Shown piece after piece: positions 1,433 to 33,655 of a DNA stretch of 55,788 nt. Made by a program: the position numbers and the translations under genes. The DNA is from Patescibacteria group bacterium (GTDB lineage: Bacteria > Patescibacteriota > Patescibacteriia > UBA10025 > JAHIVO01), in NCBI GenBank assembly GCA_041666685.1, contig JBAYGJ010000002.1:1-55788 (forward strand). Direction: 5' to 3'. The notes below the pieces were generated by a model. That model was not told the origin of the DNA. It made no database searches and was given only the letters and a program-made list of their open reading frames with translations. Positions within the stretch are counted from its first letter, which is position 1; every line of letters begins with the position of its first letter.

Positions 1433-1477
1433 ATGTTCAATTATAGCACAAGCTATAAAAATGGAATAGTTCAACTG

Positions 1478-1639
1478 TGGTGCGCCTAGCAGGACTCGGG
1501 TGCTGGGCAGCGCCCCCGCAGTGCGGGGTCGACGCTCAACAACCCCTCATTATTTTCGGGGTTTGTTTCGCTCCTGCCCTTCGAGTCCAGTGCCATTTTA
1601 ATTGGTGGTACTAAACTGAAGTCTATATACTTTTCGAAG
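1478..1639 (-). repeat. tRNA-Lys 3'-end copy (with encoded CCA) preceded by a ~140-nt structured insert
   Basis: 1480-1498 matches 1639-1657 of the intact tRNA-Lys at 18/19 positions (T-loop 3' part, T-stem and acceptor 3' strand). It continues into CCA (tgg 1478-1480), which the intact gene lacks. The segment between holds GC hairpins CCCCGCA/TGCGGGG (1513-1528) and CCCC..GGGG (1543-1561), inside a longer imperfect stem (1491-1513 with 1569-1590). Confidence 0.7.
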
Positions 1640-1711
1640 TGCGCCCAGCAGGACTCGAACCTGCAACCTTAGGCTTAAGAGGCCTCTGCTCTACCATTGA
1701 GCTATAGGCGC
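1640..1711 (-). tRNA. tRNA-Lys (anticodon CTT), no encoded CCA
   Basis: The reverse complement folds as a cloverleaf: GCGCCTA / D arm GCTC-AATGGTA-GAGC / anticodon arm GAGGC-CTCTTAA-GCCTA / T arm GCAGG-TTCGAGT-CCTGC / TGGGCGC-A. Confidence 0.9.
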
Positions 1712-1946
1712 GTAAGATGGGGATAGTGTAGCAAGTAAGTGAAATTATTTCCAGGCCGGCACCATTTACCCCTAGGATTATTAATACTCAGTAAAAATTG
1801 CGCTGAGGAATACTATCAACATCAGGATACACATACTGATGACTGCCCAAAACTGCCAGGATTGATATGCTTTTTTCTTTGGTTTTTCTTGTTGTTGGTT
1901 GGGTTGCGGTTGGATTTGTTGATCCATATGATTTGTAAGTTAATTT

Positions 1947-2021
1947 TGGTATCCCCGCTTGGAATCGAACCAAGATGTCTAGCTTAGAAGGCTAGCGCTC
2001 TATCCATTGAGCTACGGGGAC
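1947..2021 (-). tRNA. tRNA-Arg (anticodon TCT), CCA encoded
   Basis: The reverse complement GTCCCCG-TA-GCTC-AATGGATA-GAGC-G-CTAGC-CTTCTAA-GCTAG-ACAT-CTTGG-TTCGATT-CCAAG-CGGGGAT-A-CCA is a canonical cloverleaf. Confidence 0.9.
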
Positions 2022-2118
2022 TTGTTAAAGTTGCCGCTCTATCCGCTCCGACGCTCCGACTAAAACGTCGGAGGTCCGGAGCCCCGACTATTACGTCGGG
2101 GTTGAGCTACGGGGACTT
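2022..2118 (-). repeat. tRNA-Arg 5' fragment (acceptor 5' strand plus D arm) with a 57-nt twin-hairpin insert in the D-loop
   Basis: 2102-2118 is 17/17 identical to 2007-2023, and 2035-2044 is 10/10 identical to 1996-2005. Between them (2045-2101) are two related hairpins, CCCCGACGTAATAGTCGGGG and CTCCGACGTTTTAGTCGGAG. No anticodon or T arm follows. Confidence 0.7.
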
Positions 2119-20963: not shown

Positions 20964-21116
20964 AGCGGGGAACGGCCCGCCTCGACTCGCATTGTTCGTC
21001 GACGCGAGGCGGGGACTTCTTCTCCCCCAATCTCGTCGCAAGCCTCCTCGATTTCCTCCGAAGCCTGTGGCCCTCGCTTCAACTCCTTCGGAGCGCTCGG
21101 GTCCGCTTCGAATCCG
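20964..21116 (-). repeat. GC-rich hairpin element carrying a 12-nt copy of the tRNA-Gly(GCC) 3' end
   Basis: 20964-20975 (agcggggaacgg) is identical to 21176-21187. It is followed by the stems CCCGCCTCG/CGAGGCGGG (20976-21013) and CTCCGAAG/CTTCGGAG (21056-21093), and a T-loop-like TTCGAA at about 21107. Confidence 0.5.
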
Positions 21117-21391: not shown

Positions 21392-21483
21392 TGGAGGCGT
21401 GAGCGGGAATTCTTCTCGTTCCTCGAAGCCGGCCGCCCTTCGCTTTATCACCTTCGGTGCGCTCTGGTCGGCTGCAATTCCCG
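21392..21483 (-). repeat. tRNA-Cys 3'-end copy (with CCA) whose T-loop holds a ~62-nt insert
   Basis: 21395-21411 is 17/17 identical to 21503-21519 and is preceded by tgg (CCA), which the intact gene lacks. CGGGAATT (21404-21411) and AATTCCCG (21476-21483) close a hairpin around a GC-rich insert containing cccttcgc. Confidence 0.65.
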
Positions 21484-21502
21484 TATATTTATTAAGGTGA
21501 CT

Positions 21503-21574
21503 AGGCGTGAGCGGGAATTGCACCCGCGTATAGAGGTTTTGCAGACCTCTGCCTTACTACTTGGCTATCACGCC
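21503..21574 (-). tRNA. tRNA-Cys (anticodon GCA), no encoded CCA
   Basis: Reverse complement: GGCGTGA-TA-GCCA..GGC-A-GAGGT-CTGCAAA-ACCTC-TATAC-GCGGG-TGCAATT-CCCGC-TCACGCC-T. The U73 discriminator and A13/A22 mismatch are typical of tRNA-Cys. Confidence 0.85.
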
Positions 21575-21578
21575 TTAA

Positions 21579-21643
21579 AGAGGTGGTTTTGTCCCGCATT
21601 CGTGGCGGGGCAGACCTCTGCCTTACCACTTGGCAACGTAGCC
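21579..21643 (-). pseudogene. tRNA-Cys-like 5' two-thirds with a different acceptor strand and a hairpin inserted in the anticodon loop
   Basis: 21610-21643 matches the D arm and anticodon-stem region of the intact gene (21541-21574), but the acceptor is GGCTACG instead of GGCGTGA. After CTGC a 19-nt hairpin (CCCGC-cacgaat-GCGGG, 21593-21609) interrupts the anticodon. There is no T arm or 3' strand. Confidence 0.6.
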
Positions 21644-23589: not shown

Positions 23590-23601
23590 AGCGGGTAGGG
23601 A
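23590..23601 (-). repeat. 12-nt copy of the tRNA-Gly(TCC) 3' end (outer 3' piece)
   Basis: agcgggtaggga is identical to 23620-23631. Confidence 0.6.
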
Positions 23602-23606
23602 CTTAT

Positions 23607-23704
23607 TTAAGTCACATTGAGCGGGTAGGGAGAATCGAACTCCCGGCAACAGGTTGGAAACCTGTGGTATTACCACTATACGATACCCGCTCAATGTGAC
23701 TTAA
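23607..23704. repeat. perfect 21-nt inverted repeat framing the intact tRNA-Gly(TCC)
   Basis: ttaagtcacattgagcgggta (23607-23627) is the exact reverse complement of tacccgctcaatgtgacttaa (23684-23704). This extends the 7-bp acceptor stem by 14 bp. Confidence 0.9.
23620..23690 (-). tRNA. tRNA-Gly (anticodon TCC), no encoded CCA
   Basis: Reverse complement: GCGGGTA-TC-GTAT-AGTGGTA-ATAC-C-ACAGG-TTTCCAA-CCTGT-TGCC-GGGAG-TTCGATT-CTCCC-TACCCGC-T. Confidence 0.9.
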
Positions 23705-23782
23705 TTGTTGTAAATATGTTTGTGAATCGCCCGTGAACCACTGAATGGTTCAGGGCGTCATGTACCCTTGAGTGGTACATAA

Positions 23783-23837
23783 CGAACTCCCGGCAACAGG
23801 TTGGAAACCTGTGGTATTGCCACTATACGATACCCGC
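23783..23837 (-). pseudogene. 55-nt 5' copy of tRNA-Gly(TCC), positions 1-55, truncated in the T-loop (outer 5' piece)
   Basis: 54/55 identical to 23636-23690 (single g/a difference at 23819 vs 23672). The copy ends at ..GGGAGTTCG. Confidence 0.85.
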
Positions 23838-30275: not shown

Positions 30276-30420
30276 TGGTCGGGGTGCCCGGGACCCTTCG
30301 ACTTCGCTCAGGGCAGGCTTGTCACCGCCATCCTGTCATCTGACAGGATAGGTCCCGGCGGACCCCCCCGACGATACCGTCGGAAATGATTCCAGCCCTC
30401 CCCAGAGACTGGTCCGCTGA
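30276..30420 (-). repeat. tRNA-Pro 3'-end copy (with CCA) joined to a ~130-nt hairpin-rich insert
   Basis: 30276-30291 is 16/16 identical to 30449-30464, with a similar 3' flank. CCGGGACC (30288-30295) pairs with GGTCCCGG (30351-30358) around the motif cccttcgacttcgctcaggg (30294-30313) and the hairpin ATCCTGTCA/TGACAGGAT. Confidence 0.7.
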
Positions 30421-33019: not shown

Positions 33020-33057
33020 CCGAGGGCCACCTACGGTCGGACTGGCGACTCAAGGAT
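33020..33057 (-). repeat. tRNA-Phe 3'-half copy with a substituted T-loop
   Basis: ccgagggcca (33020-29), cggactggcgac (33038-49) and caaggat (33051-57) match 33084-93, 33098-109 and 33111-17. The T-loop gaat is replaced by cctacggt. Confidence 0.65.
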
Positions 33058-33081
33058 GAAAAGGGTAATTCTGCTCCCAAA

Positions 33082-33153
33082 TGCCGAGGGCCAGAATCGG
33101 ACTGGCGACGCAAGGATTTTCAGTCCTTCGCTCTACCACTGAGCTACCTCGGC
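33082..33153 (-). tRNA. tRNA-Phe (anticodon GAA), no encoded CCA
   Basis: Reverse complement: GCCGAGG-TA-GCTC-AGTGGTA-GAGC-G-AAGGA-CTGAAAA-TCCTT-GCGTC-GCCAG-TCCGATT-CTGGC-CCTCGGC-A. Confidence 0.9.
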
Positions 33154-33163
33154 ATGTGACCGT

Positions 33164-33261
33164 CCTCGGCATTTGGGAGTAATTAGCACCATTCGCTCTT
33201 CCGGGGCGCTTCTATGGGCGCGCCCGCTCTGCTTGTGCAGAGCCCACTTCGCTACCTCGGC
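33164..33261 (-). repeat. two upstream copies of the tRNA-Phe 5' acceptor strand separated by GC hairpins
   Basis: cctcggc (33164-70) plus atttgggag (33171-79) is the exact complement of the tRNA 3' strand plus trailer, giving a 16-bp alternative helix. gctacctcggc (33251-61) is 11/11 identical to 33143-53 and is followed on the minus strand by the hairpins GCTCTGCACAAGCAGAGC and GGGCGCGCCC. Confidence 0.65.
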
Positions 33262-33300
33262 GGATTCACCGGCATAAGCGAGTATTATGATACGTGTCCA

Positions 33301-33383: not shown

Positions 33384-33466
33384 TGGTGGGCGACCCAGGA
33401 GTTGCACCCTTCGACTTCGCCACCTCGATTTCACTCGGTGGCTTCGCTCAGGGTAGGCCTGGGACC
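33384..33466 (-). repeat. tRNA-Ile 3'-third copy (with full CCA) carrying a ~50-nt insert between the T-stem 5' strand and the T-loop
   Basis: 33385-33408 is 24/24 identical to 33518-33541, and cctgggacc (33458-66) equals 33540-48. The insert carries a split cccttcgacttcgc / cttcgctcaggg motif around the hairpin GCCACC..GGTGGC. Confidence 0.8.
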
Positions 33467-33519
33467 GCTCAAGTATCCAATAACAAATTTCTTCAGCATG
33501 AATGCTATTATTCCCTCGG

Positions 33520-33593
33520 TGGGCGACCCAGGAGTTGCACCTGGGACCTCGTCATTATCAGTGACGCGCTCTAACTACCTGAGCTAGTCGCCC
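33520..33593 (-). tRNA. tRNA-Ile (anticodon GAT); only CC of CCA encoded
   Basis: Reverse complement: GGGCGAC-TA-GCTC-AGGTAGTTA-GAGC-G-CGTCA-CTGATAA-TGACG-AGGTC-CCAGG-TGCAACT-CCTGG-GTCGCCC-A. Leader TTCCCTCAGT and trailer ACCGAGGGAA add 10 bp (one A/C mismatch) to the acceptor helix. Confidence 0.9.
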
Positions 33594-33623
33594 ACTGAGG
33601 GAACAAGTATGGCTACCTGCTTG

Positions 33624-33655
33624 CCCCGAGCGAAGTCGAGGGGAGCTAGTCGCCC
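33624..33655 (-). repeat. 13-nt tRNA-Ile 5' copy fused to the shared GC motif
   Basis: gagctagtcgccc (33643-55) is identical to 33581-93. The adjacent ccccgagcgaagtcgagggg (33624-43) is the shared motif in the orientation complementary to the copy inside the 3' fragment. Confidence 0.7.

Follow-up and report, generated by a model that had tools for sequence, protein, structure and literature searches.

The question raised by this locus is why two tRNA genes of an ultra-small CPR/Patescibacteria bacterium, encoding tRNA-Lys(CUU) and tRNA-Arg(UCU), are each accompanied by an interrupted partial copy of themselves. Here, the window denotes the whole stretch of 55,788 nucleotides that was analyzed, in which all features of the Lys and Arg locus lie on the minus strand.

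The tRNA-Lys(CUU) locus

The intact Lys gene is followed downstream by the following elements:

1639..1711, minus strand: intact tRNA-Lys(CUU) (ARAGORN; Rfam tRNA, 73.4 bits)
1589..1638, minus strand: AU-rich spacer of 50 nt between the intact tRNA-Lys and R1 (sequence)
1499..1588, minus strand: R1 module, 90 nt, GC-rich, three-way junction (covariance model)
1478..1498, minus strand: distal copy of tRNA-Lys positions 56-73 plus CCA (repeat D3 and sequence)
1475..1476, no strand: strain-variable junction, 2 nt past the distal CCA

The intact gene is 100% identical to the tRNA-Lys of the relative L084. A reading of the window made beforehand from the sequence only had claimed that the last 19 nt of this gene recur at 1480-1498, and repeat analysis bears this out, with plus-strand positions 1480-1498 matching 1639-1657 at 18/19 positions (repeat D3). 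The sole difference gives the distal copy an A67 and with it a Watson-Crick U6-A67 pair, where the intact gene has a U6-G67 wobble, and the copy continues into CCA (1480-1478), whereas the intact gene has no encoded CCA and is followed by CTT; both points had been read correctly. CCA is likewise encoded in four other tRNA genes here (Arg, Gly-GCC, Pro, and Val), and the original 3' end of the gene, since displaced, probably survives as the distal copy. The 7 nt with which this copy opens supply the 3' strand for stem A of R1. The 140 nt separating gene and copy had been described as a long imperfect stem with two GC hairpins; they comprise the 50-nt AU-rich spacer and the 90-nt R1 module, in which two outer stems close two hairpins. 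Between the window and L084 this spacer is 73.5% identical, compared with ~58% at third codon positions of the neighboring NUDIX gene.

The tRNA-Arg(UCU) locus and its D-loop module

At the Arg gene it is the 5' end that is duplicated, on the upstream side:

2101..2116, minus strand: remnant of tRNA-Arg positions 1-16 (GTCCCCGTAGCTCAAC) (repeat D2, 19/20)
2045..2100, minus strand: D-loop module, 56 nt, two hairpins (repeat D1, inverted repeat I3)
2035..2044, minus strand: remnant of tRNA-Arg positions 17-26 (GGATAGAGCG) (repeat D9; alignment)
2022..2034, minus strand: 13-nt leader GCAACTTTAACAA, from the remnant to the intact gene (sequence)
1947..2021, minus strand: intact tRNA-Arg(UCU) with encoded CCA (ARAGORN; Rfam, 70.1 bits)
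1781..1927, minus strand: 48-amino-acid ORF, predicted small membrane protein, filling the Arg-Lys interval

The copy consists of the first 26 nt of the gene (2116-2035) and ends at position 26; the acceptor 5' strand and both D-stem strands are present in it, as had been claimed, in the form of positions 1-16 and 17-26. Its D-loop insert does consist of two paralogous hairpins, which are 80% alike: CCCCGAC-GUAAUA-GUCGGGG for hairpin 1 and, with a longer stem, CUCCGGACC UCCGAC-GUUUUA-GUCGGA G CGUCGGAG for hairpin 2. Some of the earlier measurements needed correction, since the insert is 56 nt long and not 57, the copy starts at 2116 and not 2 nt earlier, at 2118, and the intact gene follows after 13 nt (2034-2022) rather than directly. 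The fold of the module has a z-score of -6.2.

The outermost remnant begins immediately past the NUDIX stop codon and is the positional homologue of an outer, multiply interrupted tRNA-Arg in the relatives L085 and L084. The D-loop module occurs at the identical D-loop position in L085 and in L281, a distant Parcubacteria MAG, where it lies in a tRNA-Arg(GCG) and is ~88% identical to that of the window (our own count from the alignment). The module copies show one compensatory change from C-G to U-A. The place of the leader is taken by CTATCTTTAACAA in L084 and by a GIY-YIG ORF in L281, where the module is followed by GGATAGA, the ORF, and then the intact tRNA-Arg; this shared module at the same position ties the ORF-less arrangement of the window to an ORF-bearing one. 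The 48-amino-acid ORF probably lies outside the mobile units proposed below, and the interval that it fills differs among relatives, being empty in L084 and occupied by a second NUDIX gene in L085.

The R1 module is a covarying three-way junction

The R1 module of the window scores 74.4 bits (E = 1e-17) against the R1 covariance model and is built as follows:

1588-1582, minus strand: stem A 5' arm GGACUCG, reverse complement of T-loop/T-stem
1579-1574 with 1510-1505, minus strand: stem B GGGCAG/CUGCCC
1571-1534, minus strand: P1, base GCGAA/UGAGC with tandem G.A, plus a variable hairpin
1531-1511, minus strand: P2
1504-1499, minus strand: linker AGCACC

Five further CPR genomes contain the same three-way junction, where it follows Lys, Tyr, Gly, Arg, and Trp genes. 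Across the family 95.9% of the cells pair, and 20 of the 27 pairs show double changes, a level of covariation reached by 0 of 500 shuffles; RNAalifold returned the same structure from a plain MAFFT alignment of the six founding members, a set that excludes the window's own copy. Identity to the tRNA begins at C56 (+/-1 nt) in all members. The 5' arm tracks the T-loop of the host gene, reading GGACUCG at Lys, GGAUUCG at Tyr, and GGGGAAUCG at Gly, and stem A (7 to 9 bp) amounts to a T-loop/T-stem duplex; one copy, which sits in a D-loop, has neither stem A nor the tRNA-complementary arm. R1 may sequester or silence the remnant, act as a recombination site, or serve as a guide.

Neither insert matched Rfam 15, where even a permissive scan (E ≤ 10) over 1350-2250 returned only the two tRNAs and no group I catalytic core. 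Among the candidate identities that we rejected for R1 is a hammerhead ribozyme, since GAAAC...GUC is present but the CUGANGA box and a continuous stem III are absent, and one member has GAAC. A kink-turn was rejected likewise, since R1 has the tandem G.A pairs but not the 3-nt bulge, and so was a tRNA-primed retroelement, whose primer-binding site the 5' arm resembles, as the ORFs examined include no reverse transcriptase and the copy boundary lies at C56. The covariance model is narrow and misses related-looking inserts at the Cys, Ile, Pro, and Gly(GCC) loci of the window. An overly specific first pattern matched only in the contig of L084, and a wider one matched 61 loci, the majority being fortuitous hits to coding DNA from other phyla (calculated chance expectation ~35).

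Partial self-copies and nested tRNA genes in CPR genomes

The arrangement is not confined to these two genes. At least 7 of the 10 tRNAs of the window have collinear partial self-copies, and in a survey of 140 CPR tRNAs a partial self-copy was found within 600 nt of 25 (~18%; the remaining ~82% have none), compared with 0 of 16 non-CPR tRNAs. The copies are always in the orientation of the tRNA, with 3' copies lying downstream in 21 cases and upstream in 1, and 5' copies upstream in 7 cases and downstream in 0, a strict polarity that is expected from insertion into the gene. A 16-mer scan allowing ≤2 mismatches within 1.2 kb yielded 18 copies among 127 tRNAs, at a calculated chance expectation of ~3e-4 per query.

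Several of these loci are nested. In the Gly(UCC) locus of the window, an outer copy runs through position 61, next comes an inner gene enclosed by a perfect inverted repeat of 12 bp, and positions 62-72 follow; the Thr locus of L100 shows the same abutting-remnant design. In L085, inserts interrupt one outer Arg gene at 16/17, 21/22, and 37/38 and also in the T-loop, the 21/22 insert containing a second, complete tRNA-Arg; L084 has three nested layers. The interrupted copies of L084 and L085 are without G53-C61 and T-loop residues. Literature searches turned up no account of CPR tRNA genes that are nested or flanked by remnants.

Comparison of close relatives shows both conservation and turnover. 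Third codon positions of the NUDIX gene are 57 to 61% identical among the three relatives, whereas L084 and L085 share 94.8% identity in insert I3, 90.5% in insert I4, and 19/19 positions in hairpin 1 of the D-loop module. The sequence-only reading had named unique, neutrally decaying inserts as grounds for refuting it; both inserts instead belong to families conserved across CPR. At Lys, R1 is present in the window and L084, while in L085 the whole Lys gene has been replaced: the first 12 nt of a tRNA-Lys of the window type are followed by a hairpin, a GIY-YIG ORF, and a foreign tRNA-Lys, between flanks (promoter region and terminator) that are the same as those in the window and in contig L082. 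The two states are read as occupied and unoccupied alleles of the Lys locus. Relatives were also sought via the SPFH protein, which gave 80 loci but is too conserved, synteny being gone, and a metagenome scan with the NUDIX protein revealed no new close relative.

A strain-level breakpoint at the distal Lys copy

At the junction 1475/1476, strains part ways. The window continues into an SPFH gene, whereas the JGI contig L082, which comes from another sample, matches window positions 2763-1476 at 100% identity and is unrelated beyond, where a terminator, a YgaP-like gene, and a gene for a CCA-adding enzyme follow. Run X1, from a groundwater sample, contains both flanks, with unitig depths of 7.2 and 8.8 compared with 13.9 toward NUDIX. 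L085 has a homologous terminator flank, which makes this flank the older state. No empty-site joint was found in the contigs of X1 and X2, and in X1 the unitig at window position 1 is a dead end. A second genomic copy of the Lys unit, suggested by the high depth of a 220-nt unitig, was rejected, as the depth is explained by shared tRNA k-mers.

Small GIY-YIG genes adjoin tRNA genes

The order 5' remnant, GC hairpin(s), small GIY-YIG ORF, and intact tRNA recurs in L281 (Arg and Ser), L085 (Lys), L068 (Leu), and L269 (Lys), and ORFs in this setting match the Pfam GIY-YIG family at E = 1.7e-13 and 1.6e-10. Examples of these small ORFs lie at 4654-4914 in L281 and at 7564-7824 in L085. In 2.3 Mb, 5 of the 16 small GIY-YIG ORFs end ≤50 nt upstream of a tRNA on the same strand (6 if one that starts 50 nt downstream of a tRNA is counted), when ~0.05 would be expected by chance (calculated). 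The predicted proteins consist of the catalytic domain alone, with no DNA-binding domain, and their sole NCBIfam match, below the cutoff, is to a group I intron endonuclease family. Such proteins may cut tRNA genes. No GIY-YIG ORF was detected in the window.

A proposed cassette that carries its own replacement tRNA sequence

We lean toward the explanation that the interrupted self-copies are arms left by small cassettes that invade tRNA genes and restore them with their own tRNA sequence, the copies in the window having lost the nuclease gene. At Arg, a cassette would have entered the resident tRNA-Arg in the D-arm region, bringing a leader and a complete tRNA-Arg. A full cassette of this type would comprise the two-hairpin module, the gene for the small predicted GIY-YIG nuclease, and the tRNA. 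The first 26 nt of the resident would have been left upstream, with the hairpin module within its D-loop, and the window would later have lost the nuclease gene and the downstream remnant. At Lys, a 159-nt unit consisting of new positions 56-73, the spacer, and R1 would have entered at T-loop position 55/56 and moved the original 3' end, with its A67 and CCA, 159 nt downstream, where the R1 5' arm would pair with the displaced piece. Spread would most likely occur by homing, in which a naive tRNA gene is cut by the putative nuclease and then repaired with the cassette as template, the tRNA-derived arms providing homology. Arms of this kind are found as collinear 5' and 3' remnants, with abutting break points in Gly(UCC), in the Arg locus of L085, and in L084. 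An intact inner copy stays a target, which would explain the Russian-doll nesting in the relatives.

This explanation is favored by the polarity of the copies, the abutting remnants around intact genes, the recurrent order with a small GIY-YIG ORF, the D-loop module shared with L281, the two alleles at the Lys locus, the covariation of R1, strain variants whose breakpoint coincides exactly with the end of the distal Lys copy, and modules conserved far above the neutral level. The modules would travel with the cassettes. As the window has no nuclease, integrase, or transposase gene, it shows no mobility by itself. Several observations argue against such cassettes. The small GIY-YIG proteins have no DNA-binding domain, and a nuclease with this target should also cut an intact inner tRNA of the same sequence; elements of the R1 type are without a linked GIY-YIG ORF, and the R1 copy in a D-loop is without the complementary arm. 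The hairpin modules lie inside the remnants and not at the cassette edges, which calls for a second assumption, namely that they inserted separately or that selection acted to disrupt homology or to avoid misfolding. High module conservation could equally be compatible with a host function, and the order of events is insecure because only three close relatives are available.

More tentatively, CPR may carry an undescribed class of selfish elements that home into tRNA genes without self-splicing, bring along a whole or partial replacement of the gene they destroy, leave nested Russian-doll remnants, and end in structured modules, among them the new three-way-junction motif R1 with its arm complementary to the target T-loop.

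Alternative explanations

A classical integrase attachment site, the reading suggested by the att-like look of the duplication, is in our view unlikely; it fits Lys in part and Arg not at all. It would have a tyrosine-integrase element enter the T-loop of tRNA-Lys, with the new 3' end as attL, the displaced original as attR, and R1 as the attP arm region, the element being mostly deleted to 140 nt and surviving as a remnant or as a trans-mobilized, CIME-like non-autonomous element. The direct repeat from the T-loop to the 3' end (C56 to A73, 18/19) agrees with this, as do the original look of the displaced copy (Watson-Crick 6-67 pair and encoded CCA), the tandem arrays of the Lys-type unit in L280, L281, L257, and L094, and R1 stem A, which rebuilds the target as a duplex in the manner of folded single-strand att sites. 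Strain variants and relatives diverge right downstream of the distal copy (the variants 2 nt past its CCA), as at integration hot spots. Yet Pfam searches of the ORFs around all tRNA loci of the window revealed no tyrosine or serine integrase, none was seen by eye among the listed ORFs of L094 (one ORF was run against Pfam), and no tRNA of the window or of the loci inspected has an integrase gene nearby. Pattern scans of viral contigs found no copies. A unit of about constant size, 150 to 200 nt in six genomes, is not expected from independent deletions, and integration predicts the opposite of what L094 shows, where the proximal end matches the tRNA 5' strand and the distal copies mismatch it. 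The conserved non-Watson-Crick G.A pairs and loop of R1 suggest a folded single strand rather than arm-type binding sites. Duplications of the 5' end, as at Arg and also at Gly, Ile, Phe, and Cys, and whole tRNAs within tRNAs are left unexplained. The sequence-only reading had itself doubted that integrases could account for everything, given tiny, structured inserts and a duplicated Arg 5' end, a doubt that the lack of an integrase near the window tRNAs reinforces; it put no mechanism of its own forward, and the spread of both insert families across CPR, the GIY-YIG link, and the frequency of self-copies among the window tRNAs were beyond what the letters alone could show.

A host function of the modules and tRNA pieces, as parts of CPR tRNA transcription units (processing stalks, pre-tRNA folding decoys, small RNAs with a tRNA-like 3' end, or protein-binding RNAs), seems rather improbable to us. 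It would account for module conservation well above neutral, for the covariation, conserved junction nucleotides, tandem G.A pairs, and conserved 11-nt loop of R1, and for the invariant tRNA orientation. Leader and trailer form inverted repeats with the intact gene at their tip, resembling processing stems, and the modules persist in very small genomes. Their presence, however, is patchy (L085 has no R1 at Lys, the window has no inserts I2-I4 at Arg, and ~82% of CPR tRNAs have nothing), copy number varies up to tandem arrays, and the remnants are truncated at different points in different genomes. Pairs in R1 are nearly all Watson-Crick, and G-U pairs (6 of ~350) are no commoner than C.A/A.C mismatches (5), so that neither strand is favored, unlike in most functional RNAs. 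A terminator stands between the tRNA and R1 in L280, and association with nuclease genes is typical of mobile DNA.

Local replication errors, that is, slippage or template switching at tRNA hairpins that duplicated gene parts which then decayed neutrally with hairpins as by-products, we consider very improbable. The copies are short and near the parent gene, the R1 5' arm is an inverted T-loop copy such as template switching can make, and the Arg repeat extends ~5 nt upstream of position 1. Against this, the same inserts recur at different tRNAs in distant genomes, are conserved at 90 to 100% compared with ~58% at neutral sites, covary strongly, and share their architecture with embedded GIY-YIG genes; membership of both inserts in families largely refutes an origin by such errors.

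A misjoin of tRNA-related reads from different organisms, to which tRNA k-mers common to many organisms of the sample (depth 50 to 650 at 1640-1700) and a junction at 1475/1476 resolvable in two ways might point, is hardly credible, as 1476-2763 reads identically in three assemblies (the window, ENA contig L081, and JGI contig L082), which derive from at least two samples, and in the raw Logan unitigs of X1, unitig depth is even through the inserts (13.9 over 1667-2200), and dozens of unrelated MAGs show the same architecture; the assembly error that the sequence-only reading had allowed for finds no evidence.

Significance and comparison with known systems

Introns splice themselves out, and integrative elements carry the 3' end of a tRNA. 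If tRNA genes are indeed invaded as proposed, a cassette carrying its own copy of the target would be a third route for mobile DNA into an essential RNA gene. It would explain why CPR tRNA loci are full of fragments that confuse tRNA annotation and assembly, and would give a role to the abundant family of small GIY-YIG genes in CPR genomes. R1 and the two-hairpin D-loop module are conserved, covarying structured motifs outside assigned families, and the strain-level rearrangement at a tRNA remnant points to recombination hot spots that shape tiny genomes. For CPR bacteria, whose manipulation is difficult, the modules and putative nucleases could be developed into site-specific tools.

Integron attC sites and the CTX-phi attP hairpin are recombination sites formed by a folded single strand. 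R1 may be comparable, as an imperfect palindrome of ~100 nt whose stem recreates its target, which is conserved more in structure than in sequence and forms tandem arrays at one site, but it differs in its conserved junction and loop sequences, in having no linked IntI- or Xer-type gene, and in its target, the tRNA T-loop. Small palindromic repeats of reduced genomes include the Rickettsia palindromic elements and REP/MITEs. The inserts are similarly short, GC-rich, hairpin-forming, and ORF-less and enter genes, including RNA genes, but are tied to tRNA loops and compensating gene copies, and each genome appears to have few of them.

Archaeal multi-intron and split tRNA genes have bulge-helix-bulge introns. 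The outer Arg gene of L085, with inserts in the D-loop, at 37/38, and in the T-loop and GC-rich helices flanking them, looks similar, but unlike archaeal tRNA introns (see also PMC3241643) these inserts are plain hairpins in a bacterium, and the copies are without essential parts, so no splicing would yield a canonical tRNA. A bulge-helix-bulge intron was rejected, as insert I3 of L085, by inspection, closes at its ends as a plain hairpin lacking a bulge-helix-bulge, the window inserts are hairpins or stems, and the Arg copy stops at position 26. So was a self-splicing group I tRNA intron, given no Rfam match and inserts of 56 and 90 nt in the D-loop and T-loop of truncated copies.

The tRNA att duplications (attL/attR, CIME-type remnants, and tRNA gene fragments; PMC9897764) likewise have a 3' repeat around foreign DNA, a gene rebuilt with element sequence, variable downstream DNA, and tandem arrays. 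Here, in contrast to those (PMC9897764), the unit is ~160 nt, has no integrase, and folds into a three-way junction with a target-complementary arm, and unlike with 3'-targeting integrases there are also 5' duplications and whole genes nested in genes. SegB of phage T4 is a free-standing GIY-YIG homing endonuclease in the phage tRNA gene cluster (PMC2330249), and SegB-driven amplification of tRNA loci has been described (PMC13096335). As in that system, small GIY-YIG genes adjoin tRNA genes, and the expected route of spread is that the naive allele is cut and its repair carries over the flanking markers, without any intron; the differences are that here the target gene is split, the replacement copy lies inside the insertion, remnants are left, the predicted nucleases consist of the catalytic domain only, and the setting is a bacterial chromosome instead of a phage. 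Insertions in CPR rRNA genes include short (<200 bp), ORF-less inserts at the tips or bases of stem-loops, some insertions carrying GIY-YIG genes, and are neither group I nor group II introns; the paper makes no mention of tRNA (PMC11270868). Both concern the same group of organisms and short ORF-less inserts in stable RNA genes, but the rRNA insertions interrupt a functioning gene, whose RNA has to tolerate them or have them removed (PMC11270868), whereas here the interrupted copies of a tRNA gene are truncated and its function is left to a separate, intact copy.

Architecture of the tRNA-Arg/tRNA-Lys interval

All tRNA-Arg and tRNA-Lys features lie on the minus strand, with a NUDIX gene (2620-2117) and an SPFH gene (1432-665) on either side.

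Features of the tRNA-Arg/tRNA-Lys interval
2116-2101, minus, tRNA-Arg positions 1-16, remnant
2100-2045, minus, 56-nt two-hairpin insert
2044-2035, minus, tRNA-Arg positions 17-26, remnant
2034-2022, minus, 13-nt spacer
2021-1947, minus, intact tRNA-Arg(UCU), CCA encoded
1927-1781, minus, 48-aa ORF
1711-1639, minus, intact tRNA-Lys(CUU), without CCA
1638-1589, minus, 50-nt AU-rich spacer
1588-1499, minus, 90-nt GC-rich module
1498-1478, minus, second copy of tRNA-Lys positions 56-73, then CCA

The sequence-only reading had proposed interrupted self-copies of both genes, and its particulars hold: the tRNA-Lys 3' end is repeated at 18/19 positions, A67 of the copy gives a Watson-Crick pair with U6, CCA follows the copy whereas CTT follows the intact gene, and the D-loop of the Arg copy carries two paralogous hairpins. 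The Lys and Arg regions are both predicted to fold much more stably than shuffled sequence (z = -3.3 and -6.2, respectively). An Rfam search of the region recognized the two tRNAs and gave no other match, and the 48-aa ORF (1781-1927) has no Pfam match. The closest relatives of the flanking proteins are Patescibacteria/CPR MAGs throughout, and the window also contains a bacterial 16S gene.

Positions 1476-2763 are identical in three independent sources, namely, the ENA contig L081, the JGI contig L082 from another sample, and Logan unitigs of run X1 from groundwater. This agreement shows that the inserts did not arise in assembly, and misassembly is largely excluded. L082 departs from the window exactly 2 nt past the distal CCA, continuing into a terminator and genes for a YgaP-like membrane protein and a CCA-adding enzyme (PolyA_pol and HD domains; 1334-3085 of L082), the latter being relevant because several intact tRNA genes here lack an encoded CCA. 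Since run X1 holds both continuations (unitig depths of 7.2 and 8.8, against 13.9 on the common NUDIX side), two genotypes with different sequence beyond this point exist side by side. Of the two flanks, the one with the terminator is the older, as it is homologous to the flank in the close-relative MAG L085. In X1 the 1.5-kb SPFH/HPS-like segment forms a unitig of its own (depth 7.2), which runs into a dead end at position 1 of the window; the three records that reach this side, namely, Logan contig L083, L081, and the window, stop within 30 nt of that position. Compared with the L082-type strain, the segment may have been inserted or rearranged.

The Lys insert belongs to a family of structured modules

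The core of the Lys insert, which we term R1, recurs in five further genomes, at host tRNAs Tyr (L100), Arg(UCG) (L269), Gly (L257), Arg(GCG) (L281), Trp (L094, three copies), and Lys(UUU) (L280, three copies), and as an orphan in L266, a locus without intact tRNA. RNAalifold, run on a plain MAFFT alignment, predicts a three-way junction. Stem A forms between the distal tRNA copy (C56-N64) and the element's 5' arm, whose sequence is that of the T-loop/T-stem in reverse complement; stem B is GGGCAG/CUGCCC, P1 has a GCGAA/UGAGC base with tandem G.A pairs below a variable hairpin, and P2 bears a conserved 11-nt loop in many members. Among 16 matches aligned by (and thus fitted to) our covariance model, whose E-values are rough and of which three are weak or spurious, 95.9% of cells pair and 20 of 27 pairs show double changes; none of 500 shuffles reached this pairing, and slid controls pair at about 35%. 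Stem A varies with the host tRNA, and the identity of distal copies to the tRNA always starts at C56 ± 1 nt. G-U pairs are scarce (6 of about 350) and no commoner than C.A/A.C mismatches (5), so that the fold favours neither strand. R1 units also occur in arrays of two or three, and in L280 the D-loop of one 5' remnant holds a copy that lacks stem A.

In L094 (1570-9745), a segment of about 7.6 kb with the NUDIX gene inside it is flanked on either side by R1-type units carrying tRNA-Trp 3' fragments, and these fragments mismatch the acceptor stem of the resident tRNA-Trp. The ORFs listed there include no integrase, and the segment may be an island bounded by R1-type units.

The Arg insert is associated with small GIY-YIG genes

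In L281, from a distant Parcubacteria MAG, a 5' remnant of tRNA-Arg(GCG) is split at 16/17 by the two-hairpin module known from the window, which here has about 88% identity (our count) and one compensatory C-G to U-A change. Behind it come GGATAGA, an 86-aa GIY-YIG ORF (Pfam E value of 1.7e-13), the intact tRNA-Arg 10 nt past that ORF, and two R1-type units. The same order of remnant, hairpin(s), GIY-YIG, and intact tRNA is found in L085 (Lys), L068 (Leu), L269 (Lys), and L281 (Ser). The 2.3 Mb covered contain 16 small GIY-YIG ORFs, of which five terminate at most 50 nt upstream of a same-strand tRNA and one more begins 50 nt downstream of a tRNA; by chance, we calculate, about 0.05 would be expected. 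The window has no small GIY-YIG ORF, and a Pfam search of the ORFs around its tRNA loci gave no integrase. The proteins of L281 (4654-4914) and L085 (7564-7824) consist of the catalytic domain only (83 to 86 aa), one of them with a sub-threshold NCBIfam "group I intron endonuclease" match and a weak Pfam T5orf172 match.

Layered tRNA genes in close relatives

In the MAGs L084 and L085, whose NUDIX proteins are 86% identical, the gene order NUDIX, tRNA-Arg, tRNA-Lys is kept. Behind NUDIX, L085 has a single outer tRNA-Arg of the window's sequence type, broken by four inserts.

Inserts in the outer tRNA-Arg of L085
16/17, D-loop module, same as the window's
21/22, inverted-repeat stem around a complete, different tRNA-Arg(UCU)
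37/38, 42-nt hairpin
T-loop, insert of about 125 nt

L084 has one more layer, its outermost copy being split at 29/30 by the leader TCTTTAACAA and a middle tRNA that itself contains the inner-tRNA insert. By position, the window's Arg 5' fragment is homologous to these outer genes, and its intact tRNA-Arg matches the middle cassette of L084; the downstream Arg remnants are absent from the window. In both MAGs the flanks of the 21/22 insert pair as a plain GC hairpin once the inner tRNA is removed, and the direct repeat GACGAG (6 nt) stands on each side of that tRNA, so that the gene occupies the tip of a hairpin module and is bounded by the 6-nt repeat. Hairpin tips also hold intact genes for Gly and Ile in the window and for Thr in L100. 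Between the Arg and Lys genes, the content turns over: the 48-aa ORF in the window, nothing in L084, and a second NUDIX gene in L085.

At the Lys locus, L084 has a tRNA-Lys 100% identical to the window's, with homologous spacer, module, and distal copy. L085 shares the upstream region and retains only the first 12 nt of the window-type gene, followed by a hairpin, an 83-aa GIY-YIG ORF, a complete tRNA-Lys whose acceptor stem differs, and a terminator matching the L082 flank. The window and L085 would thus represent an occupied-versus-unoccupied allele pair.

Occurrence of partial self-copies beside CPR tRNAs

In a convenience sample of loci fetched for unrelated reasons, 25 of 140 distinct CPR tRNAs have a partial self-copy beside them (14 nt, at most one mismatch, within 600 nt, outside annotated tRNAs); the 14-nt scan found none at the 16 tRNAs of non-CPR loci, a small control. 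Polarity is strict, with 3' copies downstream (21 versus 1) and 5' copies upstream (7 versus 0). Self-copies accompany at least 7 of the window's 10 tRNAs (Lys, Arg, Cys, Gly-UCC, Ile, Phe, and Pro), and a short piece is present at Gly-GCC.

Other tRNA loci of the window with self-copies
20964-21115, 3' piece after tRNA-Gly(GCC)
21392-21643, tRNA-Cys, older 5' two-thirds with hairpin in anticodon loop; 3' copy with CCA behind R1-like module
23590-23837, tRNA-Gly(UCC) (tRNA 23619-23690, minus)
30276-30313, 3' copy with CCA after tRNA-Pro
33020-33273, three layers around tRNA-Phe
33384-33655, tRNA-Ile (tRNA 33518-33593, minus)

Gly(UCC) is the cleanest single-insertion case within the window: the outer copy, whose T-loop holds a hairpin of 55 nt, is whole up to and including position 61, the inner gene is intact between the arms of a perfect 12-bp inverted repeat (TTAAGTCACATT / AATGTGACTTAA), and outer positions 62-72 follow directly. 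The Ile and Phe loci share this design. The intact tRNA-Ile lies between TTCCCTC/GAGGGAA, with a 5' remnant bearing a 24-nt D-loop hairpin (33613-33655) and a 3' remnant (33384-33466) that includes CCA and has 51 nt inserted in its T-arm; the motifs GAGCGAAG and GUCGAAGGG of the Ile insert are common to the Pro inserts and, loosely, R1. The R1 model gives no score to the inserts at Cys, Gly(GCC), Pro, and Phe. In L100, one tRNA-Thr is nested within another.

Origin of the inserts

The simplest account, towards which we lean from this wholly computational analysis, is that small cassettes insert into tRNA genes and bring compensating tRNA sequence, since this would cover the 5' and 3' copies, the abutting remnants, the repeated nesting, the association with nuclease genes, and the allele found in L085. 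The window's Arg locus would be the left arm (1-26 plus D-loop module) of such an event, with nuclease ORF and right arm lost; at Lys, a 159-nt unit (positions 56-73, spacer, and R1) would have entered the T-loop at 55/56, displacing the original 3' end. Spread may occur by homing through double-strand-break repair, and the R1 arm might silence the remnant, serve as a folded recombination site, or guide targeting. Less easily reconciled with cassette insertion are the survival of an intact inner copy, which should be open to cleavage as well, the position of the modules within the arms and not at their edges, and the lack of an ORF linked to R1-type units that could move them.

That the self-copies are integrase remnants seems unlikely: the Lys repeat and the downstream variability would fit, but integrases are missing, the inserts are uniformly small, 5' ends are duplicated, and the mismatch pattern in L094 disagrees. 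A host function of the modules, which we deem still less probable, would agree with their conservation and covariation; their patchy distribution and arrays, the truncation of remnants at different points, and the nuclease genes do not fit it. As to conservation, among the three close relatives available (window, L084, and L085) DNA identity of the NUDIX genes is 80%, and at third codon positions it is only 57 to 61%. L084 and L085 share 94.8% and 90.5% identity in the outer tRNA-Arg inserts I3 and I4, the first D-loop hairpin is 19/19 between the window and L085, and the Lys spacer is 73.5% identical between the window and L084; in R1, junctions are kept and hairpins are replaced by different, still pairing sequences. 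The modules are maintained either by selection or by recent transfer. Replication slippage with neutral decay is largely excluded by this conservation above third codon positions, by the membership of both inserts in families, and by the nuclease link.

Comparison with known systems

The combination of a split target with a carried replacement copy, nested layers, and conserved structured end modules was not found in the literature searched, whose coverage was incomplete, so that an earlier description may exist. Among the closest known systems are the CPR rRNA-gene insertion sequences, short and ORF-less or GIY-YIG-bearing, described without mention of tRNA (PMC11270868), att duplications at tRNA genes (PMC9897764), and free-standing GIY-YIG endonucleases in phage tRNA clusters (PMC2330249, PMC13096335).
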